Shown here: positions 1 through 16,954 of the stretch, in pieces
Numbering within the stretch: the stretch's first letter is position 1
How the letters are laid out: each line of letters starts with the position of its first letter
NCBI GenBank assembly: GCA_038062035.1
Contig: JBBTXV010000018.1
Location: forward strand, 5,621-23,331
Origin: Patescibacteria group bacterium
GTDB lineage: Bacteria > Patescibacteriota > Minisyncoccia > Minisyncoccales > 2-12-FULL-40-12
Reading direction: 5' to 3'
DNA length: 17,711 nt
Notes under the pieces: model-generated
Told to the model about the DNA's origin: nothing
The model's database searches: none
Seen by the model: the letters and a program-made list of their open reading frames with translations, nothing else
Translations under genes and position numbers: made by a program

Positions 1-2465
1 CGGGAATCCCTAATTTAGCAGAAGCAGAATATAAGAATATCCAAGAGGAAAAACCAGAAAGAAATCTTAGGCAAGAAGTAATCTTAAACGAAGAAAAAGA
101 AAGATTGGAGCCCATAAGAAAAGCTGAGGAGGCCCTAAAAATAATTGATGAAGAAAAAAGATTGGAGGAAATAAAAAGAATTCAAGAGGAAGAAAAAACA
201 AGGTTATTAGAAGAAGGAAAAAGGAAAGAAGAAATGGTCAAAAAAGCCAGGGAAGAGGCTGCTAAAAAGGTAGTGCAAGAAGCAAGGGAAAGATTGGAAA
301 AAATAAGAATGGAAAAAGAAGGAATACTTTTAGCGCAAGAAGAAGGAACAAAGAAAAGCCGAGAGAAAATTGAGCTTAAAACAGAAAAATTTTCCCTAGA
401 AAAAGAACTTCAAGAACTTTCAGAAAAGAAAAAGCCCTTGGAAAGGGAAGCAGAGGAAATATTAAAAGAAGAAGAACAGCTTAAAACTCATTTAGAAAGT
501 ATTTTAGTAAAAGAAAGAGAAGCAGAAAAAGAAGAGAAAAACATTGAAGGCAAAGAAAGGTTAGCGGCAACCCCGCAAGAGAAAAAAGAGCTGGAAACTC
601 AAAGATGGGCAAGTGAAGAAAAAAGGAAAAGAGTAGAAAAAGAAAGATGGGAAAAAGAAGAAAAAATAAATGAATTAAAAAAACACATAGAAAACGCTGG
701 ATTTAACATCCAGGAAGTTGAGGAAAAAGAAAGAGAAATAAAAAGAAAGCAAAAGGAAATCGCCCAAAGAGAAAGAATAATCGGAGCAGAAGAAGAAAAA
801 GAAGTCCTGGAAAGAGAACTTCAGGTTATATCAGAAAAAAAACAGCCCTTGGCATCAGAAAGGTCCCAGATTTTAGAAAAAGAACGTCAGTGTAAAAAAA
901 ACTTAAGGGATGTTTTAGACGAAGAACAAAGTATAGAAAGGGAGGAGGGCATAATTGAAGAAAAAGAAAATACAGCGACTGCCCCCGAAGAAAAAAAGGA
1001 ATTAGAAACTCAAAGATGGGCAATTGAAGAAAAAAGGAGGATGATAGAAAAAGAAAGATGGGAAAAAGAAGAAGAACTAAGCAAGATAAAAAAGGAGGTT
1101 GAAACGTACAATTTAAAGCACCAAAAAATCGTAGAAAGGGAAAGAGAGCTTCAAACAAAAATCGAAGAAATTAATCAGCTAATGGGGTTTGAAAAAAAAG
1201 CAGTGAAAAAAGGGACAGAATTCTCCGCCCACAATAAAAGCTATGAGAAACCAACTCAAACATTAAAAGAAAATGAGGAGCAAAAACAAAGCCAAAAACC
1301 AAATCAACCTTATCTGGAAGATATTAAAAAACAAGAAGAAATGGACGTTTTGAAGTTACAAAGAGAAGAGGAAGCAAGAAGACAAAGAGAGGAACAAAGA
1401 AAAAGGCAAGAACAAAAAGAATTAGAAGAATTCAAAAAATCTGAAATGAGCTTGCCGGGAAAAAAATGGATGGGGGAACCAGAAGAACAAAAAGAGAAAA
1501 ACGAAAGAGAAGAAAATATCAAAAGAAAAATATCTGAACTGCAAAATAAAGAAGAGATAGAAAGAAAAGAATTCTTGAAAAGAATTCGAGAAGAAAAGTC
1601 AAGGCAAGAGATATCTGCAATCTCCCCCCTTTCCCCATCTCAACCAATCGAAATCATTCGACCAATAAGAGAAAAGTCTTCCACCTTCGGAAAATTCTTC
1701 ACAAGACTCTTAGCTTTTATTTTAATAATCTCAATTTTGGCAGGTATTTCTTTTCTAATTTACTGGTTCTTTTTCCTCAGAAAGCCACCCCCGCCCCCAC
1801 CGACTATAATTTTAAAGTATTGTGAATTAGAAAATAAAGACATTTCAGAAAACGAATGGTCAAAAGAAAAGTGCGTACCGCCCCCTGAAATAACTATTCC
1901 CCGACCTAAGGTTGCTTATGATTTTATCAAAGATCTTGAAATCGCTGAGGAACAGGAAATTCCTCTTCGTTTAGCTGATCTTTTAGCCGGAGATTTAGAA
2001 AAAAATAAGACTTACTGGATCATAATAAAAGATACGAAAAAAAGAGAAGTTCCAAGTCTAGAAACTTTTTTGAAAGTTTTTCAAACTAAAACACCGGAAG
2101 GATTTTATGATAAATTAAATCCGGCTTTTACCTTATTCCTTTATTCCCAAGAACAAGGTAAAAGATTAGGCTTTATAGCTGAAATTAAAGAGGAGCATAA
2201 AGAGAGCTTTAGATCAGCTGTAAGGTTCTGGGAAGACACAATGGAAAATGATTTAGGACAATTCTTCGCTCTTCAAGGCAAAGAAGGGCCAGCCTTAAAG
2301 GAAAACTTTGGAAGGATTGCCTTTCGTAGTCTTGATATCAGATGCCAAACCTTCACCGAAAAAGATTTTGGGAGTTGCTACACTATAAGCAACAATTACT
2401 TTATTTTTACGCTCTCTCTTGAAAGCATGCAAAAAGCAATTGAAAATCTTCGTTTTGAACCGTAA
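1..2465 (+). CDS. E/K-rich coiled-coil membrane protein, 5'-partial; the frame is open to the window edge and the TTG at 105 is not the true start. Cytoplasmic charged coiled-coil, one TM helix, a poly-Pro linker, then a ~290-aa extracytoplasmic C-terminal domain of unknown function.
   Basis: The frame is open from nt 3 with no upstream stop. There are ~500 aa of E/K/R-rich heptad-like sequence, then one hydrophobic segment (FFTRLLAFILIISILAGISFLIYWFFFL) followed by PPPPPPP, then a mixed-composition globular C-terminus with 4 Cys. The stop is at 2463-2465. Confidence 0.6.
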   Translation, partial: GIPNLAEAEYKNIQEEKPERNLRQEVILNEEKERLEPIRKAEEALKIIDEEKRLEEIKRIQEEEKTRLLEEGKRKEEMVKKAREEAAKKVVQEARERLEKIRMEKEGILLAQEEGTKKSREKIELKTEKFSLEKELQELSEKKKPLEREAEEILKEEEQLKTHLESILVKEREAEKEEKNIEGKERLAATPQEKKELETQRWASEEKRKRVEKERWEKEEKINELKKHIENAGFNIQEVEEKEREIKRKQKEIAQRERIIGAEEEKEVLERELQVISEKKQPLASERSQILEKERQCKKNLRDVLDEEQSIEREEGIIEEKENTATAPEEKKELETQRWAIEEKRRMIEKERWEKEEELSKIKKEVETYNLKHQKIVERERELQTKIEEINQLMGFEKKAVKKGTEFSAHNKSYEKPTQTLKENEEQKQSQKPNQPYLEDIKKQEEMDVLKLQREEEARRQREEQRKRQEQKELEEFKKSEMSLPGKKWMGEPEEQKEKNEREENIKRKISELQNKEEIERKEFLKRIREEKSRQEISAISPLSPSQPIEIIRPIREKSSTFGKFFTRLLAFILIISILAGISFLIYWFFFLRKPPPPPPTIILKYCELENKDISENEWSKEKCVPPPEITIPRPKVAYDFIKDLEIAEEQEIPLRLADLLAGDLEKNKTYWIIIKDTKKREVPSLETFLKVFQTKTPEGFYDKLNPAFTLFLYSQEQGKRLGFIAEIKEEHKESFRSAVRFWEDTMENDLGQFFALQGKEGPALKENFGRIAFRSLDIRCQTFTEKDFGSCYTISNNYFIFTLSLESMQKAIENLRFEP
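400..1080 (+). repeat. Imperfect in-frame tandem duplication inside the coiled-coil gene: two ~270-bp units (~400-665 and ~808-1080) with a period of ~408 bp
   Basis: The protein segments EKELQELSEKKKPLEREAEEILKEEEQLKTHL...KKELETQRWASEEKRKRVEKERWEKEE and ERELQVISEKKQPLASERSQILEKERQCKKNL...KKELETQRWAIEEKRRMIEKERWEKEE align residue for residue. The DNA 583-662 versus 993-1078 is near-identical. Confidence 0.65.
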
Positions 2466-2468
2466 TTT

Positions 2469-2828
2469 ATGATAAAGAAATTGTTTATTAAAAAATTAAA
2501 AGAGGGATTAGAAAAAGAAAAAGACCGAGTTGAAGCTTCCCTTCAAGGTTTTGCCAAAAAAGATAGAAAACTTAAAGGAGATTGGGACGTTCCCTTTCCA
2601 AAATTAAGTCATAGTAATTTAGAAGATGAAGCTGAAGAAGTTGAAGAATATGAAGCTTTATTGCCGATTGAATATAGCTTAGAAAACCGGCTTAAAGATA
2701 TAAACTCAGCTTTGGAAAAAATAAAAAAGGGGAGATACGGTAAATGCGAAAATTGCCAAAATCCTATTCAAATTGAACGACTTAAAGCTGCTCCTGAAGC
2801 TCGTTTCTGCCTTAAATGTAAACACTAA
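2469..2828 (+). CDS. TraR/DksA-family C4-type zinc-finger protein
   Basis: The C-terminus reads GRYGKCENCQNPIQIERLKAAPEARFCLKCKH, i.e. CxxC-x17-CxxC preceded by a charged helical N-terminus, which is the zf-dksA/traR architecture. The start is 4 nt after the upstream gene's stop. Confidence 0.75.
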   Translation: MIKKLFIKKLKEGLEKEKDRVEASLQGFAKKDRKLKGDWDVPFPKLSHSNLEDEAEEVEEYEALLPIEYSLENRLKDINSALEKIKKGRYGKCENCQNPIQIERLKAAPEARFCLKCKH

Positions 2829-2840
2829 AAATCTTTTATT

Positions 2841-4406
2841 GTGCCTTCTAAAATATACTCAGCAGCCACTATTGGTCTTGACGCCCAAACTGTTGAAGTT
2901 GAAGTAGATTGCAGTTATGGCCTTCGTTCTTTCACTATTGTGGGATTACCAGATAAGGCCGTTGAAGAGTCAAAAGAAAGAGTAGCCAGCGCAATCAAAA
3001 GCATAAAACTTTCTCCGCCTCACCATCAACCTCGCCGCGTTTTAGTCAATTTGGCGCCAGCTGACCTCAAAAAAGAAGGTTCTCTTTACGATTTGCCAAT
3101 TGCTTTGGGCTTTCTTTTATCTTCAAAACAGATAAAATTTGATCCTGAAGGAAAAATCTTCTTGGGAGAATTAGCTTTAGATGGAAGATTAAGGCCAATT
3201 AAAGGGGCTTTATCTATTTCTCTTTTTGCCCAAAAAAAATTTAAGGAGATAATCTTGCCAGAAGAAAATTCAAAAGAGGCTGCCTTGGCTACTTTAAAGA
3301 ATTCTGGGAAAGAACAAATTGACTTTAAGGTAATTGGCATTGCAAATTTAAAAGAAGCGATTGATTATTTAGAAGGGAAAAAACAAATATCGCCTCAAAA
3401 AATAAATTCCGGGGAACTTTTTAAGGAAACCGACTTTTCTTTTGATTTAGGTTTCATCAAAGGCCAAGAATACGCTAAAAGAGCCCTGGAAATTACAGCA
3501 GCTGGCGGCCACAACCTCTTGATGTCAGGACCGCCTGGCGCTGGAAAAACCCTCCTATCTAAAGCCATTCCTTCTCTTTTACCCTCGCTTTCTTTTGAAG
3601 AATCTTTAGAGGTCACCAAAATTTATAGCATCGCTGGTCTTTTAGCCGAAGGGCAATCCTTGATCAATCTCAGGCCTTTTCGTAATCCTCATCATACTAC
3701 TTCAGAAGTAGCTTTAATTGGCGGAGGAAATCCTCCCAGGCCCGGCGAAATAACTCTGGCTCACCGGGGAATTCTTTTTTTGGACGAGTTTCCTGAATTT
3801 CATCGCGACGTCCTGGAAAGCCTGCGCCAACCCATTGAAGAAGGAAAAATCACCATTGCCAGAGCAAGACACTCTTTAACATTGCCAGCCAGGTTTACTT
3901 TAATCGCTGCCACTAATCCTTGCCCTTGCGGCTATCTTCAAGACTCGGAAAAAAATTGCACCTGTACCAGTTCCCAAGTCCAAATGTATAAAAGAAAATT
4001 ATCTGGCCCTTTAATGGACAGAATTGACCTTACCATTGAAGTTCCAAAATTAAAATACGAAAAATTGATAGCTTCAGGCGAAGAAAGTGAAAGCCAAAAA
4101 ATAAGATTAAGAGTAGAAAAATCAAGGGCAATCCAAGGAAAAAGATTTGGGAATGACAATACTGAAAGAAAAGATAAAATATTAGTGAATGCTGAAATGG
4201 GACTGCCCGAAATAAAAAAATACTGCCAAATAGACAGTAATTCTCAAGGCCTTTTAAAAAAGTACGTTGATTCAGGATTTCTTTCGGCTCGCGGCTACCA
4301 TCGAGTTTTAAAAGTAGCCAGAACTATTGCCGATTTGGATAATTCTGAAAACATCGGCTATCGCCATCTCTCAGAAGCATTAATCTATAGGATAAGAGAA
4401 GGATAA
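2841..4406 (+). CDS. comM: YifB/ComM-family Mg-chelatase-like AAA+ ATPase, GTG start
   Basis: There is an N-terminal Lon/ChlI-like domain (TIVGLPDKAVEESKERV). The Walker A motif is LLMSGPPGAGKTLL and the Walker B region is GILFLDEFPEF. The sensor region ATNPCPCGY with Cys pairs is typical of YifB/ComM. Confidence 0.9.
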   Translation: MPSKIYSAATIGLDAQTVEVEVDCSYGLRSFTIVGLPDKAVEESKERVASAIKSIKLSPPHHQPRRVLVNLAPADLKKEGSLYDLPIALGFLLSSKQIKFDPEGKIFLGELALDGRLRPIKGALSISLFAQKKFKEIILPEENSKEAALATLKNSGKEQIDFKVIGIANLKEAIDYLEGKKQISPQKINSGELFKETDFSFDLGFIKGQEYAKRALEITAAGGHNLLMSGPPGAGKTLLSKAIPSLLPSLSFEESLEVTKIYSIAGLLAEGQSLINLRPFRNPHHTTSEVALIGGGNPPRPGEITLAHRGILFLDEFPEFHRDVLESLRQPIEEGKITIARARHSLTLPARFTLIAATNPCPCGYLQDSEKNCTCTSSQVQMYKRKLSGPLMDRIDLTIEVPKLKYEKLIASGEESESQKIRLRVEKSRAIQGKRFGNDNTERKDKILVNAEMGLPEIKKYCQIDSNSQGLLKKYVDSGFLSARGYHRVLKVARTIADLDNSENIGYRHLSEALIYRIREG

Positions 4407-4407
4407 A

Positions 4408-5553
4408 TTATCTATTAAAAGGATTACTAGCTCCCTTGACTTCAAAATGAAGGTGGCAACCAGTCGTTTTTCCGGTATTTCCTATTGTTCCAATTTGCTC
4501 ACCTGCTGAAACTATTTGTCCTGACTGAACCAAAACGGATCCAAGATGATAATAAGCAGTAACCACTTGGTTAGGATGAATAACAGAAATGCTGTTGCCC
4601 GCTCCAGCATTCCAACCGCCAGCCTTAGCCCTTACGATTTCTCCCCCGGCTGCAGCAAAAACAGGCCTGCCGCAACTATTTCCTCCAGGATGAGTCAAAT
4701 CTACGGCATTATACCAATGCAAACCCTGGCTGATTGTATAAGGAGAAGCCAAAGGAAGAATAAAGTAACTGGAGGGAAGAGATATTTGGTTTGGCGAGGA
4801 AGGATTTACGAACTTTTGCTGCTTTTTTGAAGGCGGGGGCATTATGCCATCGGGAATAATTAAAATATCGCCAATATAAATATCGCCCTCGCTTTCCAAT
4901 TCGTTAAAAGCGACGATCTTGCCAATATCGCTTTTATAATTTTTAGCAATCTGGCTTAAAGTTTCTCCTTTTTTAACGTAGTGTAAAATTCCAGAAACCG
5001 GCAAAATAATTAAAGCTTGGCCAGATTTCAGTTTGGATTTTTTGGTCAGGTTATTAGCCCAAATTAAGGTTTCCAAAGAAATACCAAATTTTTCAGCCAC
5101 TGAGACCAAGGTATCGTCCTCTCTGAGGGTATACTCGATAACCTCTTTTCTCAGACTTGATTCAATCCCTTGTCCTGTCAAAACACCAAAGCTATGAGAC
5201 AAAACCATAACTGGGGAAGAAACAGCCATTATGCTGTCTTTTTGAACCAAAACAAGATCTGAAGAATTGTCAAAAGAATTAGGGCCTAAAACAGAAAGAG
5301 ATGAAGTCAAAACAGGCTGATTGATTCCGTCAAAAGAAGAATCTCCTGGCGCATTTGAAATTTGGGCCTGGAGATTTTTGGTTAAAAGAGAAGAATCTAA
5401 GTTTTCTGAAAAAACAATGGGCCTAAAAGCTAAAGCCAATAACGAAATCGCTAAAATTAACCCAAAAAGGAGAAAAGGGTCTTTGAGAGATCCCTTTTTT
5501 TGTTCGTAGATTCGGCGAATTACCTTTTTGAACTTGGCTCCAAAGGAGCTCAA
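4408..5553 (-). CDS. Membrane-anchored peptidoglycan hydrolase with two LysM domains and a C-terminal M23 (LytM-type) metallopeptidase; TTG start
   Basis: There is an N-terminal TM helix (FLLFGLILAISLLALAF). The two LysM-like segments are YTLREDDTLVSVAEKFGISLETLIWAN and HYVKKGETLSQIAKNYKSDIGKIVAFN. The M23 motifs are HWYNAVD...HPGG and GCHLHFEV. The start codon is TTG (plus-strand CAA at 5551-5553) and the first in-frame ATG lies >100 codons downstream. Confidence 0.85.
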   Translation of the reverse strand: MSSFGAKFKKVIRRIYEQKKGSLKDPFLLFGLILAISLLALAFRPIVFSENLDSSLLTKNLQAQISNAPGDSSFDGINQPVLTSSLSVLGPNSFDNSSDLVLVQKDSIMAVSSPVMVLSHSFGVLTGQGIESSLRKEVIEYTLREDDTLVSVAEKFGISLETLIWANNLTKKSKLKSGQALIILPVSGILHYVKKGETLSQIAKNYKSDIGKIVAFNELESEGDIYIGDILIIPDGIMPPPSKKQQKFVNPSSPNQISLPSSYFILPLASPYTISQGLHWYNAVDLTHPGGNSCGRPVFAAAGGEIVRAKAGGWNAGAGNSISVIHPNQVVTAYYHLGSVLVQSGQIVSAGEQIGTIGNTGKTTGCHLHFEVKGASNPFNR

Positions 5554-5791: not shown

Positions 5792-6628
5792 ATGGAACTT
5801 GCTTCGTTAAGAGAAATAAAAAAGATACTCCAAAAAAACCGAACTTCTCCCTCAAAGGGCTTGGGTCAGAATTTTCTAATCAGTCGAACAGCTCTAAGTC
5901 AGTTAATTGGGGCTGCCGAGCTAAAAAGAGAAGATACCGTCCTGGAAATTGGGCCGGGAATCGGAGTTTTAACCTTAGAATTAGCCAAAAGAGTAAAAAA
6001 ATTAATTGCCGTAGAAAAAGACCGAAAAATGTGCCAAATTCTAAAAGAAACTTTGGAAGCTTATAAAAATTTGGAAATTATCAACGCTGATATTTTAAAA
6101 TTTAACCATAATAACTATAAACTAATAACTAAAAACTATAAACTGGTAGCAAATCTTCCTTATTACATTACATCACCTGTAATAAGAAAGTTCTTGGAAG
6201 TTGAAAAACCGCCTGATTTAATGGTTTTAATCGTGCAAAAAGAAGTCGCTCAAAGAATTTGCGCCAAGCCGCCCAAGCTCAATCTTCTGGCGGTCTCCGT
6301 TCAATTGTATGCCAATCCTAAGATTATCTCTTTTGTTCCGAAAAATTCTTTCTGGCCCAAACCCAAGGTTGATGGAGCAATCATTCAAATTACGCAAATA
6401 AAAAAAGATGGAAAAATAGATAATCAAACATTTTTTAAAATCGTGAAAGCAGGATTTTCCCAGCCAAGAAAACAAATTATTAACAACTTGTCTAAAAGGT
6501 TAAAATTAAATAAGATGCAAGCCGAATCTTGGTTAAAATCTTGTAAAATCGAACCTGAACAAAGGGCTGAAACATTAAGCTTATCTGATTGGATTCTGTT
6601 AACAGAAAAATTTGCTATAATAAAATAA
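5792..6628 (+). CDS. rsmA: 16S rRNA (adenine1518/1519-N6)-dimethyltransferase RsmA/KsgA
   Basis: The N-terminal GQNFL motif is present. The SAM-binding motif is LEIGPGIGVLT, the NLPYYITSPVI motif is present, and the C-terminus is helical. The stop TAA at 6626-6628 overlaps the next ATG. Confidence 0.9.
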   Translation: MELASLREIKKILQKNRTSPSKGLGQNFLISRTALSQLIGAAELKREDTVLEIGPGIGVLTLELAKRVKKLIAVEKDRKMCQILKETLEAYKNLEIINADILKFNHNNYKLITKNYKLVANLPYYITSPVIRKFLEVEKPPDLMVLIVQKEVAQRICAKPPKLNLLAVSVQLYANPKIISFVPKNSFWPKPKVDGAIIQITQIKKDGKIDNQTFFKIVKAGFSQPRKQIINNLSKRLKLNKMQAESWLKSCKIEPEQRAETLSLSDWILLTEKFAIIK

Positions 6629-9123
6629 TGCCAAAGAGAGCAATAGGATTTTTTATAATTTTCTCTACGTTTTTTTTATTATTTTCTCTTTTTTCCTCTT
6701 TTGATTTCGCTTTTGCTCAAGGAAGACAATTGGAAATTGATTATCCAAATGTTCCCGGAGCCCCTACTCCAAAAACAACCGCAACCTTATTACCCGATTA
6801 CGTTAAATACGTCTTTAATTTCGGGATAATAATTTTTGGCTTAATAGTTTTGGGCGTTTTAGTCGCAGGGGGAATTAAATATCTTTTATCCACGGGGAAA
6901 CCGGAAGCATTACAAGAAGCCAAGAATCAAATACTTGCCGCTTTTTTGGGAATAATCGTTTTACTTAGCTCTTATTTAATTCTCACCACTATTAATCCCC
7001 AGTTGGTAATTTTTAACATACCGGGACTAACTCAAATTACGGTCTTTCGCTGCACAACCGATGAAAGTTGTAATGGGCGTTTCGGGTGTGAAACGCCGGG
7101 CACTTGTCGTTGCGACCTTGGAATCTGTAGGGCAAAACTGGAACCAAGGGAAACAACTTTAATAGCTTACGAAATCCCCGTAGGGCAACTGATAGAAAAG
7201 GGTGTTCAGAACGAAAACAATATTAACGAGGTAACCATTTTACTTAACGAATTTGAAAAATTTTTGAAAAAGGAAATTCCCGTTGACCCGCCTTCTTATA
7301 GATTATCTGATTTAAGCAAGCATCTTGTGGGCCTAACCGAAGATTGTAGCTGTGATGCCACGGAGGGTATTTGCGCCACTCCTGAAGCCGGAGCCGGAGG
7401 AGTGGGCTGCTTTGGAAATCCTTGTAAAGATTCCGAGGAAGAAATCCAAAAAGCCGTGGATATTACCTCTCAAAAAATAAGAGAGCTTCAAGATTTTAAA
7501 AATGAAGTAAAAAAACAGTTTCAAATTTTTCTGCAAGAAGGAGAAAAATTTTTAAAAGCTAACGAAGAAATAAATGAGTGTATAGAAAATGGGAAACTTT
7601 TAACCTTGGCTGATTATTTAGCTACATCTCAATTTTTTACTGAGCAAGGATGGAAGACGCAACTCAAATCAAACCCATATTTCCCTAGCTCTGGAGGAGA
7701 CGATCTAACATTTTATTGCATAAAAGGAGGAACAATTTTTGACGCGCCGAGAACCAGCTCATTCAATATACCTGAGATTCCGTTAGAGTTAAACCTTGTA
7801 ATTCCAACCGAACCCTTGTTAAGTCCAGAACCATTATCTTGTCCGGCAATTCTCCCGTTAGGCGAAATGCTAGATAATATAACAATTGAATCATACACAG
7901 CCAACGAAGATCTGGAAAGCCTAATCGTTCTTATTGACTTACTCTCTAAAGAACTCCAAAAATTACTTGATTCTGTTTCAAGCTGCAGCAGGAAAGACGC
8001 ATGCAGCATTACTTGCGCAAAGGGACCAAATCCCTGTTTTCCTGAAAGACCCTGCGCTCAACCATGGGGAGTGGGATATCCATGTTTTCGCTGCAACCCT
8101 CTTTCCCTTCCGCCTTGTTTACTCTGTGGACCAGGCATGGGTCTTTCTCCAAATATTCAAGCCAGAGGGGGCGGATCATCTTGTCAGGGCAATCCTGATG
8201 CGCCATACCACGGCTCCCCTTGCCCTCGTGATGATATAGAAAAAACTTTACAAAAGATTAAACTCCTTGATAATGAAATTATTGAACTAATCCAAGAAAC
8301 AAAAAATGGATTTAATGCGAAGCCGTACATAATAGAGACTCCTAAGGAAAATATAAACTTGCTCCAAGGAATTAGAGGGTCAACGGCATTCTGTACCAGC
8401 GATGATATTAATAACCCGGATATTTTTTTGCTTAATTGCCTAGATGCTATAGGAAATGAAGGGCCGGACGGCAACATAATTGGCGACTGCGATCCTCAAA
8501 GCTTTTTTTGCTGTACCGCTGATAAAACAAAAGCGGGTTCAATAAGGCAATCTTTTCCAAGAGAAACACAAGAATTCAACTATTATACTGGCCCTCGTCT
8601 TGAAAACCCTTTTTCTCCTGCTGAAATTAGAAATAATGTTCCTTATTTTAGCCAAAAGGACCCTCTTTGGGCGGGAAGGTCTTATGGGTGCGGAGGGACA
8701 ACAATAAAATCCTCTGGTTGCGGCCCTACTTCTATGGCTATGGTGTTACGACATTACGGCAAAAATGTCGATCCTGTAATCACTGCTGAATGGTCATTAA
8801 GAAACAACTTTCGAGTTTGTAATGCCGGTACTGCCTGGAGTTTTTTCAACAGTATAGCTAAATCTTACGGTTTAAATGGGTGCAAACCTTTAAGCGTGGC
8901 GAATATTGACAATCTAATAGCTAAACTTTCCGATGGACCGATAATCGTTAGCGGCCGAGGAAATCCTCCGTATTCAAAAGGAGGACATTATATTGTTTTA
9001 ACCGGGGCAGATGAAAATTATGTTTATATAAATGATCCGGCACGACCTAAGTTAAAAAGAAAGCTAATTGACGAATTTAGAATAGCTGGGAGAGCAAGAT
9101 TCGCTTGCCAAGTTAAACAATAG
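6628..9123 (+). CDS. Secreted/membrane chimeric protein: Sec signal peptide, a VirB2/TrbC-type pilin-like TM hairpin, a ~520-aa Cys-rich ectodomain and a C-terminal C39-like (papain-fold) cysteine peptidase domain
   Basis: I prefer the start at ATG 6628 (MPKRAIGFFIIFSTFFLLFSLFSSFDFAFA|QG is a textbook signal peptide) over the tracked 6589 start, which overlaps rsmA. A conserved motif LEIDYPNVPGAPTPKTTATLLPDYVKYVF precedes two TM helices separated by STGKPEALQEAKNQ. Multiple Cys clusters follow. The C-terminus contains YFSQKDPLWAG...GCGPTSMAM...GGHYIVLTG. Confidence 0.75.
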   Translation: MPKRAIGFFIIFSTFFLLFSLFSSFDFAFAQGRQLEIDYPNVPGAPTPKTTATLLPDYVKYVFNFGIIIFGLIVLGVLVAGGIKYLLSTGKPEALQEAKNQILAAFLGIIVLLSSYLILTTINPQLVIFNIPGLTQITVFRCTTDESCNGRFGCETPGTCRCDLGICRAKLEPRETTLIAYEIPVGQLIEKGVQNENNINEVTILLNEFEKFLKKEIPVDPPSYRLSDLSKHLVGLTEDCSCDATEGICATPEAGAGGVGCFGNPCKDSEEEIQKAVDITSQKIRELQDFKNEVKKQFQIFLQEGEKFLKANEEINECIENGKLLTLADYLATSQFFTEQGWKTQLKSNPYFPSSGGDDLTFYCIKGGTIFDAPRTSSFNIPEIPLELNLVIPTEPLLSPEPLSCPAILPLGEMLDNITIESYTANEDLESLIVLIDLLSKELQKLLDSVSSCSRKDACSITCAKGPNPCFPERPCAQPWGVGYPCFRCNPLSLPPCLLCGPGMGLSPNIQARGGGSSCQGNPDAPYHGSPCPRDDIEKTLQKIKLLDNEIIELIQETKNGFNAKPYIIETPKENINLLQGIRGSTAFCTSDDINNPDIFLLNCLDAIGNEGPDGNIIGDCDPQSFFCCTADKTKAGSIRQSFPRETQEFNYYTGPRLENPFSPAEIRNNVPYFSQKDPLWAGRSYGCGGTTIKSSGCGPTSMAMVLRHYGKNVDPVITAEWSLRNNFRVCNAGTAWSFFNSIAKSYGLNGCKPLSVANIDNLIAKLSDGPIIVSGRGNPPYSKGGHYIVLTGADENYVYINDPARPKLKRKLIDEFRIAGRARFACQVKQ
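6731..7013 (+). other. VirB2/TrbC-like pilin hairpin module (conserved pre-helix motif plus two TM helices ending in TINPQL) within the 6628-9123 CDS
   Basis: The topology is signal peptide, short conserved motif, TM1, ~14-aa polar loop, TM2. It is paralogous to 12410-12700. Confidence 0.45.
8630..9075 (+). other. C39-like / papain-fold cysteine peptidase domain (Peptidase_C39_2-like) at the C-terminus of the 6628-9123 CDS
   Basis: The motifs are NVPYFSQKDPLWAGRSYGCGGTTIKSSGCGPTSMAMVLRHYG and later GGHYIVLTGADENYVYINDP. This is a putative Cys nucleophile followed by a His, in the order and spacing expected of YvpB-type C39-like domains. Confidence 0.55.
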
Positions 9124-9144
9124 GAATATTTTTAAAGTCCGGTT

Positions 9145-12100
9145 ATGTTAAGAGATCTAAAAAAAAGTTTAATATTAAAATATCTAAAAAAAATTAAGTT
9201 TCTAAATACTTATTTTTTAGCTTTGGGAATAATAACAACGATTTTCTTAATTTCTGGTTTCGCTGGAATAAGCCCTCTTTCTGACAAAGTTAAAGTGTTG
9301 GGCCAAGGAATACCTTTGTTTTATTTCCCCAATTTTCCAATAAGATTGGCTTTTTTAGCTAATGAGATCACGACAACCAACGAAGAACTGATTATTCGTA
9401 GTGATGAGCTATCAAAATTCGTCAACGCTTTCGACTGCAAATACGCTCAATCGCAATGCGTGCAGACAACAAAGAAATTGCCAGGAGGAGGACAGCAATC
9501 CATTTGCGAGCCAGGACCAATAAAAGTATTTGGAAGGGTTAATCCTATACCACAAGGCACCACCAATGAAAAAGAAGTTCACTCCGAAGAAATACAATCT
9601 GCAATAAATGATTTAAATATTAAACTTGCCTCCTTGCAAACAACTTTAAGAGGGGAAGTCGAAATTGGCATAGAAAAACAGTTGAAAACTTTAAGGCCTG
9701 AAGACGCTCAAATTATCAGAGACAATTTAGAAAAACTTGATCGGTTAATGTCCGAAATGAGAAATCTAACTGAAAGAAACTCTTCACTACCTAATAAATG
9801 TTCAGTTCAAAGATGCACCCCGGAATGCGAATTAGGCCAAACTTTTACTGCTGAAGCCTGTGTTGGAGCTTCCGGCGAACAAAAACCAATAGAGCTTAAA
9901 TTTAAAGTCGGCGTAGGATTAGATAATTTGAATCTCGGCAGGTTGGGCATAGAAAACATCAATCTTGGCTTACCAGACAAGGTTAATATACCAACTCCCC
10001 AACTTCCCTCTCTCAGTTTCCGTATTCCAAATGCCACCTTAAACTGCCCGACCCAAAGACAACAGATCGTTTTTCATCCATCCACTCCTATCCTACCAGA
10101 CTTGCCAACCATAACTCTGAGTTGTCCTCAATATCAAAGCTATTCATCCTATCAATGCTCTTCTCCTCCCTCGCAAGGAGAAGAAGGGTTTATTGAATTT
10201 GAATGGTGGAATAAAACTTTTGAGCATTTGTCAGGAGAATGTCTTAAAGTTGCTAACAGCGACAGTAAAAGATTAAAAAATGAACAAGGGCAAATTGAAT
10301 ATCAAAAAGCAGTAGAGGGCTGCATGAGCCCAGAGAAGGTTGTCCCGACCACTATTAATGAGTGTGAAGCAAAATGGGTAAGAAAATGTTCTTTCCTTGA
10401 CTGTCGCTGGGAACTCTCCAATCCCCGAGAACAAGAAATCTGTGGTCAGATTGGTCGTTCACCAGACAAAACTCAAAAAGCGGTTAAATGGTGCCAGACA
10501 TTATACCAAGATGAAGGACAAACCCCTCCGGCTACCTGCTCTTCTGAAACAATTCTAACAACTCATCAAAAGTGCAACGAGATAAGAAATTCAGGTAGAG
10601 AAAACGTTCCGCTTTCTTGTAAACTTTTACCGTTATTCGCTGGACAATTAGAAGATCTGCCAGAAGGAACAGTTATAGGTCAAGGAGGAAATTGTCCATC
10701 TCAAAATATTGGGGATTTTCCTATACCAATGGCTGGTTGCGCAATAACCGCTCCATCTATCCCTAAAATAACTTTTCCAACAATAATTATCCCTGACATC
10801 CATCTTCCAACTTTCAGCTTACCTCCTCTCTTTCGGGTAAAATTACCAAATCTTATTTTTGAGGACTTAAATATAGGCGAAATCAACCTTTGCAACTTAG
10901 ACGACTGCAGCGCCCAATTTCCTTACTTAACTTTTAAACCTCCTTCTTTAAAAATCCCTCAAGTAAATGTTCCGCCTGTTACCCTGGAGATTCCAGGCGC
11001 CTCTCCAATAGATATCCAAATAGAACCAATTAATTTCCAGACCTTAAATTTTAACATTCCCCAGTTAATTAACTTGGGATCTTTGGTAACGCCCGAATTA
11101 AAGATACCGGAAATTCCCCTGCCCCAGCCAAGAATTCAATTCTCTTTTCTCGGAATTAATATTGATTTGCTAAATCTACTTCTTGGCCTTTTCAAAACGC
11201 CCCTCAATCTTAATCAGTGCGTGGCTTTGGACGCTAAGCTTGGAGTGCTCGATATTGTTTATCCTGACAAATATTTCCCTTGGCCAGCCTATCCCAAACC
11301 AGGAGAACTCAAATTTTGCAAAAAAGCAAGAGAATGGTGTCAAAGACAAAAAGGATCAATCCAGGAAATAACAACAAAAGCCGCTAGAATTCAAGAGCAA
11401 GTTAATAGCGTTTTTCAGAGCGAAATCCAAACAAAGCTTGATAAGACAGCTGATAGATTAAATCAAAAAATAACCAGAGAAGTTGAAAGAGAACTTGAGA
11501 AAGTTAAAAACGAAATAAGCAAGCAATTGCTCCAACATTTAGGGAAATATGCTCCTCAAAATGTTATACCTCCTTCAGCGCCGGTGCCTGGCGTCTGGGA
11601 AGTTAAAGGAGAACTTCCCTGTCAAGGAATACCGCCTTTAACCGTTTATATGCCTCCGGATTTACAAACAATTAGCATTGATCCTCAATCAATAAATGAA
11701 TTCCTTGAAAAAGAATTTGGAGAAACCTGGCCAACAGAAATTACTATCCGCTGGCCAAAAGATCTAAAAAAGTTCAAGCTGTCCTGTAACGAAAGTAATT
11801 GTGAGGCCTGTGAACAAAGAGGAAATGACGCTTGCCGAGGATTGTTAAGATGGGCGGACTGCCCGACCCTTGCCAATTGGGAAGATTACGCAAAATGCAA
11901 GTTGGATTACAGAATAAACAGCTGTAAAAACGAGTGCAAAAACTGCTTAAGCTATGACCTGCCGTCAGTTCCTTTGTGCGGATTAAGTTACAAAAAAGAA
12001 TTTACTAGAAGACTTCCTGGCCATCAACTATCTGTAACGACGCCAAGAGATCTTCTTTCGGGTTTAAGAAATGTTCGCGAGTGTATTAGTGGGCCACCCA

Positions 12101-12219
12101 AAGGAGGAAATCCTTGCCAGACAGAAGCAGGTCAAATCCAGGCTAATCTTAATAAGATTAAAAGATTATCGGAGGAGATGAAAAACGCTTCCCAAGAGAT
12201 AACTAATTTATTATACTAA
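9145..12219 (+). CDS. Large (1024 aa) signal-anchored, cysteine- and proline-rich extracytoplasmic protein with a coiled-coil segment; a putative surface or adhesin-like component
   Basis: There is an N-terminal TM anchor (FLALGIITTIFLISGFAGI) and >40 Cys. A coiled-coil stretch (EIQSAINDLNIKLASLQTTLRGEVEIGIEKQLKTL) is present. A long run of periodic xIPxxxLPxL motifs (IPKITFPTIIIPDIHLPTFSLPPLF...KIPEIPLPQPRIQF) shares the IPEIPL motif with the preceding CDS. Spacing to its neighbours is tight. Confidence 0.75.
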   Translation: MLRDLKKSLILKYLKKIKFLNTYFLALGIITTIFLISGFAGISPLSDKVKVLGQGIPLFYFPNFPIRLAFLANEITTTNEELIIRSDELSKFVNAFDCKYAQSQCVQTTKKLPGGGQQSICEPGPIKVFGRVNPIPQGTTNEKEVHSEEIQSAINDLNIKLASLQTTLRGEVEIGIEKQLKTLRPEDAQIIRDNLEKLDRLMSEMRNLTERNSSLPNKCSVQRCTPECELGQTFTAEACVGASGEQKPIELKFKVGVGLDNLNLGRLGIENINLGLPDKVNIPTPQLPSLSFRIPNATLNCPTQRQQIVFHPSTPILPDLPTITLSCPQYQSYSSYQCSSPPSQGEEGFIEFEWWNKTFEHLSGECLKVANSDSKRLKNEQGQIEYQKAVEGCMSPEKVVPTTINECEAKWVRKCSFLDCRWELSNPREQEICGQIGRSPDKTQKAVKWCQTLYQDEGQTPPATCSSETILTTHQKCNEIRNSGRENVPLSCKLLPLFAGQLEDLPEGTVIGQGGNCPSQNIGDFPIPMAGCAITAPSIPKITFPTIIIPDIHLPTFSLPPLFRVKLPNLIFEDLNIGEINLCNLDDCSAQFPYLTFKPPSLKIPQVNVPPVTLEIPGASPIDIQIEPINFQTLNFNIPQLINLGSLVTPELKIPEIPLPQPRIQFSFLGINIDLLNLLLGLFKTPLNLNQCVALDAKLGVLDIVYPDKYFPWPAYPKPGELKFCKKAREWCQRQKGSIQEITTKAARIQEQVNSVFQSEIQTKLDKTADRLNQKITREVERELEKVKNEISKQLLQHLGKYAPQNVIPPSAPVPGVWEVKGELPCQGIPPLTVYMPPDLQTISIDPQSINEFLEKEFGETWPTEITIRWPKDLKKFKLSCNESNCEACEQRGNDACRGLLRWADCPTLANWEDYAKCKLDYRINSCKNECKNCLSYDLPSVPLCGLSYKKEFTRRLPGHQLSVTTPRDLLSGLRNVRECISGPPKGGNPCQTEAGQIQANLNKIKRLSEEMKNASQEITNLLY

Positions 12220-15170: not shown

Positions 15171-15605
15171 ATGATGGAAGATTTTAAATCTGAGGTTGAA
15201 AAAATAAAAGAGCAGTACCCGGAATTTTTTGAAAAGGTTGATCCCGAACTCTTGAAGTTTATTACCTCTGAAAAATTTTTATTTGATGTCGCTCAAATCT
15301 GTTTGGATAATGGAATAACAGACGAGGAGCAAACGGAAAAAATTACTTATAGGGTCGCCTTGGCTTTATTCGGAGAGGTGCCCAAAGAAAATTTAGCCCA
15401 GATTCTTGAACTCGGAGCCGGATTGGATCCTCAAACTGCTAAGGCAATGCATCTTGAGTTCAACCGACTTATTTTTTCTCAACTGAAAGAACCGAAAAAA
15501 AGACCGGAGGTTAAAATGGAATTTTCTCCGGGCTTATTAGAAGAGACCGAAATAGAAAGCGAAAAACCTAAAAGAAAAGATATCTATCACGAGCAGATAC
15601 AATAA
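15171..15605 (+). CDS. Small acidic hypothetical protein (144 aa), probably cytoplasmic
   Basis: It is an intact ORF with a clean start and stop, no TM helix and no motif I recognise. A hairpin terminator follows it. Confidence 0.55.
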   Translation: MMEDFKSEVEKIKEQYPEFFEKVDPELLKFITSEKFLFDVAQICLDNGITDEEQTEKITYRVALALFGEVPKENLAQILELGAGLDPQTAKAMHLEFNRLIFSQLKEPKKRPEVKMEFSPGLLEETEIESEKPKRKDIYHEQIQ

Positions 15606-15619
15606 ACAAAAATAAAGAA

Positions 15620-15645
15620 GGAACGGTAAAACCGTTCCTTTTTTC
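15620..15645. terminator. Bidirectional rho-independent terminator between convergent genes
   Basis: The hairpin is GGAACGG-TAAAA-CCGTTCC (7-bp perfect stem) followed by TTTTTT on the plus strand. The minus strand reads the same stem followed by TTCTTTATTTTT. Confidence 0.65.
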
Positions 15646-15672
15646 AATGAATTCAATGAATTCAACGAATCA
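15642..15672. repeat. Short tandem repeat, about 3 copies of TTCAATGAA / TTCAACGAA
   Basis: The sequence ttcaatgaattcaatgaattcaacgaatcaacc was read directly. It overlaps the stop and last codons of the minus-strand SPFH gene. Confidence 0.4.
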
Positions 15673-16954
15673 ACCAGTAAATCATTGAACCAACCATGGA
15701 AAATATCGCCAGAAGACCTAAGGCCTTCTTACCCAAACTAACATCCTCTTCCGGGTTCGGTATTATCGCCGGGTATCTTGACTTTACTTTTCTTACTGGC
15801 GGAACTTGATCTTCAAGATGCTCTTGCGAGCTTGCTCCTCCTCCTGAAGACTCGTCTTTCTTCTCCGCCGCCTCGGATGATTTTTGCTCTGGCGTCACTC
15901 CTTCACCAACCGGTGGCATTCCTTTATAAGCAGCAATGATCTTCAAGATACCAGCGAGGACTCCGCCATCGCCTCCTTCAGCTCCCGGAGTTTCGATCCT
16001 CAGATAGGATTTTGACTCCATCGAAAGCTTACTCATTGTGCTATCTATTATAACTTTATGCCTCCGGTAGAACTCTTCGGGGCTTGCTTGAAGCTCCTTC
16101 TTAACTTGCTCTGGGGATTTACCTGCACTAGCCACAGATGCAATAACTGTCCCCATTATTTCTTCGGCCCTACCAGCCGCTATTAACTCTTGCTTTCTTT
16201 TAGCTGAAGCCGCCCTCTGATAATCTTCGGACAGATCAACCTCTTGAATCTCAATGCCCTTATCTGCTAATTTCATCCCCCACTTTTGTAAGGTTTCTTC
16301 AATCACCTTAGCTCCAGTTAAAAGACCCTCTTGGTTTTCTGCCCAAAGAGATGCGCCTTTAAGCTTAAGAAGCGTATCAAGGTCACGACTAGTGACAATT
16401 GAACGCATCTCTGCCTTTATTTTGGCGAGAACATCTTCAATTGGGGTCGGAGGAGCAATAAATAAAAAAGAATACGGATTGTCGATCCTTAACGTGATTA
16501 AAACCAAAACGTCCACTGGGATTCTTTCTGGCGGTGCGGTTTCAACAGCCGTAAGCTTAATCGCGTAAACCGCTGATTTCAAGAGAACGTGCCTCATCCT
16601 TAGTTCCTCATGAAACTCAGGGTTTGTATCACCGCTTTCTCTTAAACGAATATCGGTCCAGCGGTTCTTGTACTGGTGGATCGCATGAAATGGCCAAATG
16701 CCATACAAATACAATCCTCCAACAATACGCAAGCCCGTCCAAACTTCGTCTCTCTCCCTACGATCGGGGTCTTCTTCGTCAGTTAAAATCTTCCAACTAT
16801 GATCCATCCAGTGCTTTTCCCACGAAAAAAGGATCTTTTTGAACTTTCCGAAAGACACTACTGCCTTTGCGGTTCCTTCGTTAACCGTGGTAAAACATCT
16901 AATAAACCAGAAAAAAAACGCTAACGATATTCCGAGCGTTATCAGCCATTCCAT
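15662..16954 (-). CDS. SPFH / band-7 (stomatin-prohibitin-flotillin-HflK/C) domain membrane protein with both N- and C-terminal TM segments
   Basis: The N-terminal TM is followed by VNEGTAKAVVSFGKF, which is the typical SPFH domain entry. A long helical Ala/Glu/Lys-rich segment follows (YQRAASAKRKQELIAAGRAEE). The C-terminal hydrophobic segment is GLLAIFSMVGSMIYWLI. The RBS is GAGGTG, 7 nt before the ATG. Confidence 0.75.
   Translation of the reverse strand: MEWLITLGISLAFFFWFIRCFTTVNEGTAKAVVSFGKFKKILFSWEKHWMDHSWKILTDEEDPDRRERDEVWTGLRIVGGLYLYGIWPFHAIHQYKNRWTDIRLRESGDTNPEFHEELRMRHVLLKSAVYAIKLTAVETAPPERIPVDVLVLITLRIDNPYSFLFIAPPTPIEDVLAKIKAEMRSIVTSRDLDTLLKLKGASLWAENQEGLLTGAKVIEETLQKWGMKLADKGIEIQEVDLSEDYQRAASAKRKQELIAAGRAEEIMGTVIASVASAGKSPEQVKKELQASPEEFYRRHKVIIDSTMSKLSMESKSYLRIETPGAEGGDGGVLAGILKIIAAYKGMPPVGEGVTPEQKSSEAAEKKDESSGGGASSQEHLEDQVPPVRKVKSRYPAIIPNPEEDVSLGKKALGLLAIFSMVGSMIYWLIR

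Follow-up and report, generated by a model that had tools for sequence, protein, structure and literature searches.

Patescibacteria raise the question of which component of their type IV secretion systems (T4SSs) cuts the wall that the apparatus must cross, and the locus described here suggests an answer. T4SS loci in this group are MPF_FATA-like and carry arrays of VirB2-like pilins, and most genomes with VirB2 have no recognisable VirB1 (PMC12102498). S. epibionticum needs its T4SS and pilin array to grow as an epibiont, and what they do there is an acknowledged question (PMC10633639, PMC12857230). Most Patescibacteria clusters lack a relaxase and coupling protein, and the pilins are unusual for monoderms (PMC10633639, PMC11665869, PMC12857230); extracellular pilus polymerisation has not yet been shown for any Patescibacteria pilin (PMC12857230). 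We analysed a stretch of 17,711 nucleotides (the window), which corresponds to contig CAYIAO010000005.1 of GCA_964361475.1, a Patescibacteria metagenome-assembled genome from the 0.1-µm fraction of Hainich groundwater. One of its genes encodes a fusion of a VirB2-like pilin hairpin, a cysteine-rich stalk and a Peptidase_C39_2 domain. In the reading that we favour, at a probability of roughly 70%, this protein is a peptidoglycan peptidase, directed at the stem peptide or cross-link, that is tethered to the Patescibacteria T4SS through its pilin module.

The fusion gene (all coordinates are collected in Table 1) starts with ATG and consists of 831 codons followed by a stop. An identical database protein (P0001, 831 residues, same ATG start) carries the NCBI label 'C39 family peptidase [Patescibacteria group bacterium]'. 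An earlier note on this DNA had proposed the open reading frame (ORF) as a single secreted polypeptide of 832 residues with a VirB2-like hairpin, a Cys-rich stalk and a C39-like peptidase. Translation and the database protein establish the ORF, and the single polypeptide stands at a length of 831 residues instead; the motifs quoted at the time are all found (YFSQKD at residue 673, GCGPTS at 697 and GGHYIV at 785). The body of the protein is indeed predicted to be extracytoplasmic, though 'membrane- or pilus-anchored' is better wording than simply secreted. An alternative in-frame TTG start at 6589 is possible and would lengthen the ORF.

As judged from its sequence, the N-terminal hairpin is a complete pilin unit. 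At the predicted signal-peptide cleavage site the pattern A/V/S-x-A followed by Q is kept across orthologues. The unit behind it contains a LEIDYPxxPG motif, two transmembrane helices and a short basic loop, and ends at TINPQLVIF. Hydropathy places hydrophobic segments at residues 3-29, 57-90 and 100-129, and the modelled helices of the unit span residues 57-87 and 92-122. The T4SS_pilin profile (PF18895) scores above its cutoff in the orthologues P0003, P0012 and P0014 (29.1-31.1 bits), and reaches 27.8-35 bits in stand-alone pilins of 133-214 residues that are 51-58% identical to residues ~3-144 of the fusion. These stand-alone proteins stop just after TINPQLV, exactly where the stalk of the fusion starts. 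A HMMER search with residues 1-665 gave 11,650 cluster representatives at E <= 1e-3; among the best 150 of these 11,650 matches, most cover only residues ~10-140. At the level of the family the evidence is strong that the N-terminal unit belongs to the VirB2-like pilins of Patescibacteria, the score of the query itself being marginal. The hairpin proposed earlier is thereby upheld through its relatives, which pass PF18895, and through the signal peptide and two-helix layout. Because of this signal peptide and the two transmembrane helices, the body of the protein after residue ~130 is predicted to lie outside the cell.

At the other end of the protein, profile, fold and residues place the C-terminal domain in Peptidase_C39_2, with catalysis predicted. 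PF13529 matches residues 670-805 at 80 bits (cutoff 24, E = 3.4e-22) and covers profile positions 2-143 of 143, a score far over threshold and a positive outcome for the Pfam check that had been proposed; the domain has the papain-like (clan CA) alpha+beta fold of that family. Peptidase_C39 (PF03412) matches as well, more weakly (E = 4e-10). In an alignment of 75 relatives Q676, C698 and H787 do not vary and D803 is kept in at least 90%; the Gln, Cys, His and Asp are also retained in all 10 C39_2 tails of the fusion family, where the N-D pair is invariant. C698, H787 and D803 align with the CGxxS, His and DP motifs of 6mpz and ComA, so that at the level of the alignment the proposed Cys and His are borne out, together with an Asp. 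The nearest relatives of the domain alone are proteins of 230-310 residues with PG_binding_1 and/or PG_binding_3; they are not from Patescibacteria, and the named ones come from Clostridia and Desulfotomaculum. A C39_2-related domain is furthermore present in 13 phage records (30-34% identity, most unannotated), which lend weak support. Surveys of phage lysins count Peptidase_C39_2 among the catalytic lysin domains (10.1101/2021.02.23.432618, PMC10541714), and the N5 domain of mycobacteriophage LysA matches the C39-like peptidase of B. anthracis (PMC3314691).

The substrate class is best approached through the orthologues. Homologues at 33-67% identity share residues 1 to ~630 but diverge completely past the FFCC motif that ends the stalk. 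Tail clustering covered 35 stalk-bearing members, and a neighbour-joining tree was built from 32 pilin+stalk modules. The 35 tails fall into five unrelated classes: a domain without a family match but with an invariant SxHYGG...SYAVD...HxH pattern (14 of 35), Peptidase_C39_2 (10), NlpC/P60 (8), the MepA-like murein endopeptidase family Peptidase_M74 (2) and Peptidase_M15_4 (1). On the tree the tail type changes at least nine times, a count that is approximate since the tree is without support values; in one case two modules that are 64% identical carry C39_2 and NlpC/P60, respectively. An assembly artefact is unlikely as the source of this exchange, given that each type occurs in several independent samples and contigs. 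All tail families that can be identified are peptidoglycan-peptidase families. Their catalytic residues are kept: the NlpC/P60 tails (8 of 8) retain the DCSG Cys and the downstream His, and the M74 and M15_4 tails their His/Asp metal motifs. Because the tails are interchangeable at one position of a conserved scaffold, the C39_2 tail would share its substrate class with the others.

The fusion of pilin and cargo extends beyond the stalk-bearing family, into other Patescibacteria hairpins. Of 94 further proteins with such a hairpin, 76 are scored as T4SS_pilin, and the recognisable cargo on the 94 includes M23 (4), C39_2 (4), SLT (3) and SLT_3 (1). SLT is the catalytic domain of VirB1. The tail swaps, the peptidoglycan-binding partners and the M23, SLT and C39_2 cargo elsewhere are the reasons for which we favour a peptidoglycan substrate over leader-peptide processing.

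The commonest tail is a domain of ~170 residues with eight invariant Cys, found in P0012, P0013, P0015, P0016 and 10 more proteins; in P0307 and P0308 the same domain is joined straight to a T4SS_pilin hairpin, the stalk being absent. The domain is a candidate for a new family of wall hydrolases. A LAS/M15-like identity was considered and rejected, being a motif-level impression that hhalign, Pfam, NCBIfam and the PDB all leave without support.

Between hairpin and peptidase lies the stalk, for which the earlier description as Cys-rich was accurate: it has 30 Cys between residues 142 and 629. At least 15 of these are invariant across 15 family members, and the stalk ends at the invariant FFCC motif (residues 626-629). 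In the AlphaFold model it consists of helices of ~30-50 residues (270-321, 411-454 and 534-563) with beta-rich, Cys-containing excursions; the predicted local distance difference test (pLDDT) is 73 overall and 80-97 over most of the long helices. A structure comparison with the stalk model gave no specific structural relative. The linker that follows differs in length and sequence from orthologue to orthologue, and its pLDDT is below 50 at residues 8-24 of the C-terminal model (647-663 of the protein) and at residues 654-665 of the N-terminal model. In P0014 (992 residues, NlpC/P60 tail) the stalk contains an insertion of ~240 residues (residues ~325-565) without a Pfam match.

Table 1. Positions in the window of the fusion gene, its parts and predicted catalytic codons, and the genes that follow it.
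Feature	Position	Strand	Basis and remarks
Whole gene, pilin + stalk + C39_2 peptidase fusion	6628..9123	+	ORF and translation, 831 aa
Sec-type signal peptide, aa 1-30, AFA|QG	6628..6717	+	hydrophobic aa 3-29; predicted cleavage site
VirB2-like T4SS-pilin unit, aa 31-135	6718..7032	+	PF18895, stand-alone relatives, hydropathy, modelled helices
Cys-rich stalk, aa 136-640, 30 Cys, helical bundle	7033..8547	+	composition, alignment, model
Variable disordered linker, aa ~641-669	8548..8634	+	low pLDDT, variable alignment
Peptidase_C39_2 papain-like domain	8635..9120	+	Pfam aa 670-805; folded core to aa 831
Codon Q676, invariant Gln of YFSQ motif	8653..8655	+	candidate oxyanion-hole or substrate-binding residue
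Codon C698, predicted nucleophile, GCGPTS	8719..8721	+	invariant; aligned to CG motif of 6mpz, ComA
Codon H787, predicted catalytic His, GGHYIVL	8986..8988	+	invariant; aligned to His of 6mpz, ComA
Codon D803, predicted third catalytic residue, INDPA	9034..9036	+	aligned to DP motif of 6mpz
1024-aa cassette partner, one N-terminal transmembrane helix, 40 Cys	9145..12219	+	synteny
Second cargo-bearing pilin, 488 aa	12227..13693	+	BLASTP paralogy, PF18895
Polytopic membrane protein, 484 aa	13690..15144	+	hydropathy, Zn_Ribbon_1/DZR matches, synteny
144-aa acidic protein, last gene of co-directional block	15171..15605	+	position kept in L004, L005, L006
SPFH/Band_7 membrane protein, convergent neighbour	15662..16954	-	PF01145 28.1 bits
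5' fragment of prgI (virB3-like), cut by contig end	17522..17710	+	PF12666 PrgI

The surrounding genes connect the fusion to a T4SS, as had been proposed. A prgI fragment ends the window (PF12666, E = 8e-6; its 26.8 bits fall just short of the cutoff of 27), and in the syntenic locus L004, which has an M74-tailed orthologue, a full-length prgI, a TraC-like gene and virB4 (P-loop_TraG/DUF87/AAA_10) stand directly after the cassette. Locus L005 has two small TrbC/T4SS_pilin genes 5' of the fusion, and a neighbour at this locus scores 39 bits for TrbC/VirB2. The same cassette is found in L001, L004, L005 and L006. In a Nealsonbacteria genome it comes after rpsP, not ksgA, and its intactness there, beside different upstream genes, shows that the cassette itself is what is conserved. 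In the window the ATG of the fusion shares bases with the stop codon of ksgA/rsmA (16S rRNA dimethyltransferase; TAATG, 6626-6630), an overlap also seen in L004, and because of it the T4SS cassette appears translationally coupled to a housekeeping gene. Such coupling is a simpler reading than a promoter of its own: a promoter-like site at 6599-6626 was rejected for this role, its -10 element ending 2 nucleotides before the ATG.

Within the cassette, the 1024-residue type of partner (966-1156 residues) lies directly 3' of the fusion in L001, L004, L005, L006 and L020. The protein of the window is 49% identical over its full length to its L004 counterpart, where the tail is M74, and has no family match in the profile scans; possibly it serves the stalk as a structural partner. 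Homology between the two was considered and rejected, the best match (E = 0.018) being to a coiled-coil segment. The 488-residue pilin combines a signal peptide, a small Cys-rich insert, a hairpin (residues 58-160) and an extension of ~330 residues of unrecognised fold. Its hairpin is 51% identical to that of the fusion over 103 residues (BLASTP, E = 2e-32); PF18895 gives it 18.5 bits and its L006 orthologue 28.1 bits, and is also listed, with no mark as weak or faint, for the L005 orthologue. The operon thus shows that cargo-bearing pilins occur as sets. The 484-residue protein, whose ORF overlaps the preceding gene by 4 nucleotides, has at least six hydrophobic segments, a long Gly/Ala/Arg-rich cytoplasmic tail of low complexity and a C-terminal zinc ribbon. 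Its sole conjugation-related match is a weak one to the pLS20_p028 conjugation transmembrane family (15.6 bits), and it is possibly VirB6-like, an identity that is not established. The 144-residue acidic protein has no family match in the profile scans. Between its ORF and the Band_7 gene lies a perfect palindromic GC-rich hairpin (15618-15640) with T-runs on both sides, probably a bidirectional terminator that closes the cassette operon. The Band_7 gene has the same position in L004 and L005; in L006 an ORF of 389 residues stands there.

Further observations concern the flanks. Just upstream of ksgA, and divergent to ksgA and the cassette, the window encodes a housekeeping-type LysM-LysM-Peptidase_M23 wall hydrolase (4408-5553, minus strand), whose position is kept in L004 and L005; a separate wall-remodelling enzyme thus adjoins the pilin-tethered one. 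The ORF at 105-2465 (plus strand; 786 residues here, 853 in the ENA gene call) starts with ~520 residues of extremely Glu/Lys-rich coiled coil, which accounts for the strong purine skew in the first 1.5 kb of the window, followed by a transmembrane helix (residues 526-559), a poly-Pro run and a C-terminal domain of ~220 residues; it has no family match. At its position L004 has a 901-residue ORF without a Pfam match. In L005 the flanks (2007-3454 and 21432-22424) are of toxin-antitoxin or abortive-infection type, with AbiEii, DUF6922 and a ParE toxin on one side and NTP_transf_2 with HepT-like/HEPN on the other, and differ from those in the present window.

Several results weigh against a wall peptidase mounted on a T4SS pilin. 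For the pilin part, the query itself scores 24.4 bits for PF18895 (residues 67-121), just under the cutoff of 26.6. A profile search of the hairpin against solved conjugative pilins retrieved none, only HtrII-type transmembrane hairpins at E ~2, and the modelled hairpin matches no solved conjugative pilin structure. For the peptidase part, the top structural matches are leader-peptide proteases (6mpz, PCAT1 and ComA), with a marginal sequence likeness to 6mpz (E ~1e-3), and no literature demonstration of peptidoglycan activity could be cited for any PF13529 member. The commonest tail, present in 14 of the 35 members, matches nothing in Pfam and NCBIfam at E up to 1 and nothing in a PDB profile search; hhalign gives a probability below 1% against the M15_4 and M74 tails, and none of the 13 homologues found is annotated as a cell-wall or catalytic domain. 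For the T4SS link, virB4 lies outside the present contig and is connected through synteny with a 51%-identical orthologue, and L005 has no virB4 within 10 kb. The pilin assignment is nonetheless rescued, because the orthologues and the 51-58% identical stand-alone pilins pass the PF18895 cutoff. As to the substrate, a fold whose best structural matches process leader peptides does not by itself point to the wall; what suggests it is the exchange of the domain for others and the domains that accompany it in its relatives.

Taken together, the parts of the protein lead us to propose the following course of events. Sec export and signal-peptide cleavage would insert the VirB2-like hairpin in the cytoplasmic membrane, with (from the hydrophobic segments) the N-terminus out, the loop in and everything after the second transmembrane helix out. 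Since the hairpin is by all appearances a complete pilin unit, the fusion could join the membrane pilin pool of the locus and be positioned at, or mounted on, the assembly site of the T4SS or pilus. The stalk of ~500 residues, presumably rich in disulfides, and the flexible linker of ~25 residues would hold the enzyme off the membrane. The C39_2 domain would then use C698, H787 and D803, with Q676, to cut peptide bonds of the wall that the apparatus must cross.

Which wall this is allows two answers. Our tentative preference is for the own wall, opened for a pilus or channel by a hydrolase of VirB1/PrgK type, because the membrane is the default location, monoderm T4SSs have anchored hydrolases and VirB1 is reported to be scarce. 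The host wall at the contact between epibiont and host comes a close second; this alternative is possible, though we would not bet on it. It shares the general claim of the favoured reading and differs in the target wall and in pilus incorporation: the pilin unit would leave the membrane and be built into the T4SS pilus, presumably as a low-copy or tip subunit, and the peptidase would open the host wall locally for attachment, effector delivery or nutrient uptake, with tails that track host peptidoglycan chemistry. The quick tail exchange (at least nine switches, and different enzymes on modules that are 64% identical) is typical of variable external targets, and the tails that have a family all belong to peptidases of the stem peptide or cross-bridge, the most taxon-variable part of peptidoglycan. 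It can be added that the nearest C39_2 relatives lie outside Patescibacteria (in Clostridia and Desulfotomaculum) with related domains in phage genomes, that the strongly conserved stalk with its 30 Cys suggests a robust extracellular structure, and that the operon also encodes a second cargo-bearing pilin and a surface protein of 1024 residues with 40 Cys. Saccharibacteria depend on the T4SS and pilins to grow as epibionts, and a conduit leading to the host has been suggested for them (PMC10633639, PMC12857230). Nonetheless, nothing indicates that a pilin with a C-terminal extension of ~700 residues can polymerise, and a pilus of these systems has yet to be observed. Sec insertion would by default leave the protein in the own membrane, and the own-wall hydrolases of Gram-positive T4SSs are likewise diverse in domains. 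Its most specific form, a tip or minor pilin that presents an exchangeable peptidase matched to host wall chemistry and turns the pilus into a wall-drilling device, seems to us unlikely. The earlier note had offered both a VirB1/PrgK/CwlT analogue and an effector acting on a host envelope; a wall-hydrolase role has become considerably more likely through the tail swaps and the fusions with peptidoglycan-binding domains, and its two alternatives are not separated.

A conserved N-terminal module with cassette-like exchange of the C-terminus is also the defining architecture of classical polymorphic toxins (PMC3482391), in which a delivery module carries exchangeable C-terminal toxins and an adjacent gene encodes the cognate immunity protein. 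We consider this improbable here in view of the gene downstream. The 1024-residue neighbour is 49% identical beside C39 and M74 tails, i.e. independent of the tail and on par with the 51% of the N-terminal module of the fusion, and the same five-gene cassette occurs with both tails. No small variable ORF follows the tail (the gap at 9123-9145 measures 21 nucleotides), no orphan tail cassettes were seen, and the chromosomal position among housekeeping genes is conserved.

Quite improbable, too, is a processing protease, in which the C39 domain would mature the pilins of the locus, its Cys-rich partners or the fusion itself and leave peptidoglycan alone. The PF03412 match (E = 4e-10) and the top hits at the level of the fold fit such a role, and several exported proteins of the operon might need maturation. 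However, orthologues substitute NlpC/P60, M74 or M15_4 for the domain and other pilin fusions carry M23 or SLT; SLT is a glycosidase, so that a shared role in protein processing is implausible. The closest C39_2 relatives are, moreover, fused to peptidoglycan-binding domains. Neither ABC_tran nor ABC_membrane has a match in the fusion protein or in the neighbouring genes scanned, and the match to TIGR03796 covers the peptidase part only (28 bits against a cutoff of 853). The domain is predicted to lie outside the cell, unlike the C39 domains of PCAT proteins, which are cytoplasmic, and no GG leader but a Sec-type signal peptide (AFA|Q) precedes the pilins of the locus. ComA-type C39 domains have their oxyanion Gln six residues before the catalytic Cys; position -6 from C698 is Thr692, and the conserved Gln stands at -22. 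On these grounds the domain is not a C39 leader peptidase of the PCAT type.

That the tails are pseudo-enzymes which merely anchor the stalk to a wall is very improbable. Hydrolase folds that have lost their activity are at times put to new use in binding, and conservation is much stronger in stalk and hairpin than in the tail, but the catalytic residues are strictly kept in 10 of 10 C39 and 8 of 8 NlpC/P60 tails, and the His/Asp metal motifs remain in the tails of the M74 and M15_4 classes.

A peptidase tethered to a pilin thus remains the favoured reading, and no earlier description of pilin-hydrolase fusions was found in the searchable literature (most subscription-journal papers were outside the search); the searched text of PMC10633639, PMC12102498, PMC11665869 and PMC12857230 does not mention them. 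As far as this literature shows, the combination of a pilin, a stalk with 30 Cys and an exchangeable putative peptidoglycan peptidase is undescribed. Such fusions offer a concrete and testable answer to the VirB1 puzzle, in that the wall-cutting activity would be fused to a pilin paralogue, and they show that Patescibacteria pilins can carry large extracellular cargo. The cassette-like exchange of tails is a natural experiment that may assign a substrate class to C39_2 and to the commonest tail. The stalk, for its part, is a conserved and probably disulfide-rich fold without a solved relative. If the host wall were the target, its chemistry would become predictable from metagenomes and the catalytic tail would be a readable marker of host range. 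A tip pilin, if true, would account for the dependence of the epibiotic lifestyle on the T4SS and pilin array: the pilus would open the host and so allow attachment, effector delivery or nutrient extraction. Overall, the locus indicates that an ultra-small groundwater bacterium may have a new way to fit its type IV secretion apparatus with a tool for breaching walls, and makes two open questions about T4SSs in the Candidate Phyla Radiation (CPR) accessible at the bench: the role of the essential T4SS and pilins, and the whereabouts of the VirB1 function.

Compared with known systems, the fusion shares single features with several. Peptidase_C39_2 is known from secreted proteins that consist of this domain alone and from the N-terminal part of endolysins (PMC10318531, PMC3314691); in contrast to these (B. 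anthracis 3ERV, phage lysins, mycobacteriophage LysA N5), the domain of the fusion is the C-terminal cargo of a T4SS pilin. From the C39 domains of PCAT/AMS proteins (PCAT1, ComA, LahT 6MPZ) it differs in having no ABC transporter, a predicted extracytoplasmic location and no Gln at -6, and both its surroundings and the swaps at its position speak for the wall as its substrate. With polymorphic toxins (PMC3482391) it shares a conserved N-terminal presentation module and the recombinational exchange of unrelated C-terminal enzymes, but it has no co-varying immunity gene and belongs to a conserved cassette of T4SS structural genes whose place in the chromosome is fixed. An analogy only can be drawn with the virion-associated lysins of phages (the gp13 tail knob of phi29, hydrolase motifs of tape-measure proteins), where a wall enzyme likewise stands at the end of a penetration device and domains are exchanged; the carriers are not homologous, and here a cellular secretion system takes the place of the virion. 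Both phage examples are lysins mounted on tail structures.

The closest likeness in the carrier is to the VirB2-like pilins described for Patescibacteria (PF18895; Wang et al. 2023, PMC10633639; Quinonero-Coronel et al. 2025, PMC12102498), which have the same signal peptide, LExxYP motif, two transmembrane helices and TINPQL end. In their arrays, too, several divergent pilin genes stand in one locus near prgI/virB4. The pilins described are small, whereas the pilin unit of the fusion has a C-terminal extension of ~700 residues that ends in an enzyme.

In function the likeness is to the VirB1-type hydrolases (PrgK of pCF10, TraG of pIP501, CwlT of ICEBs1, TcpG of pCW3), which are wall hydrolases encoded in T4SS loci and tethered to the membrane or secreted. 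CwlT and TcpG are likewise modular T4SS wall hydrolases. In monoderms these proteins are modular, with variable SLT, CHAP/NlpC-P60, M23 and glucosaminidase domains, and let the apparatus cross a thick wall (PMC12102498). The NlpC/P60-tailed members of the present family, and the SLT or M23 domains on other pilin fusions, add to this likeness. The fusion itself has no SLT/lysozyme-like or CHAP/NlpC-P60 domain homologous to VirB1, TrsG or CD419; its single catalytic domain is C39_2, without a glycosidase, and C39_2 is not reported for VirB1-type proteins in the literature found. The anchor here is a full VirB2-like pilin hairpin, whereas theirs is a plain transmembrane helix or lipobox, and a stalk of 500 residues with 30 Cys separates anchor from enzyme. 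The catalytic domain, finally, is swapped between close orthologues. Hence, while it would do the work of a VirB1-type wall hydrolase of T4SSs, the fusion is no homologue of one and at most a functional analogue.

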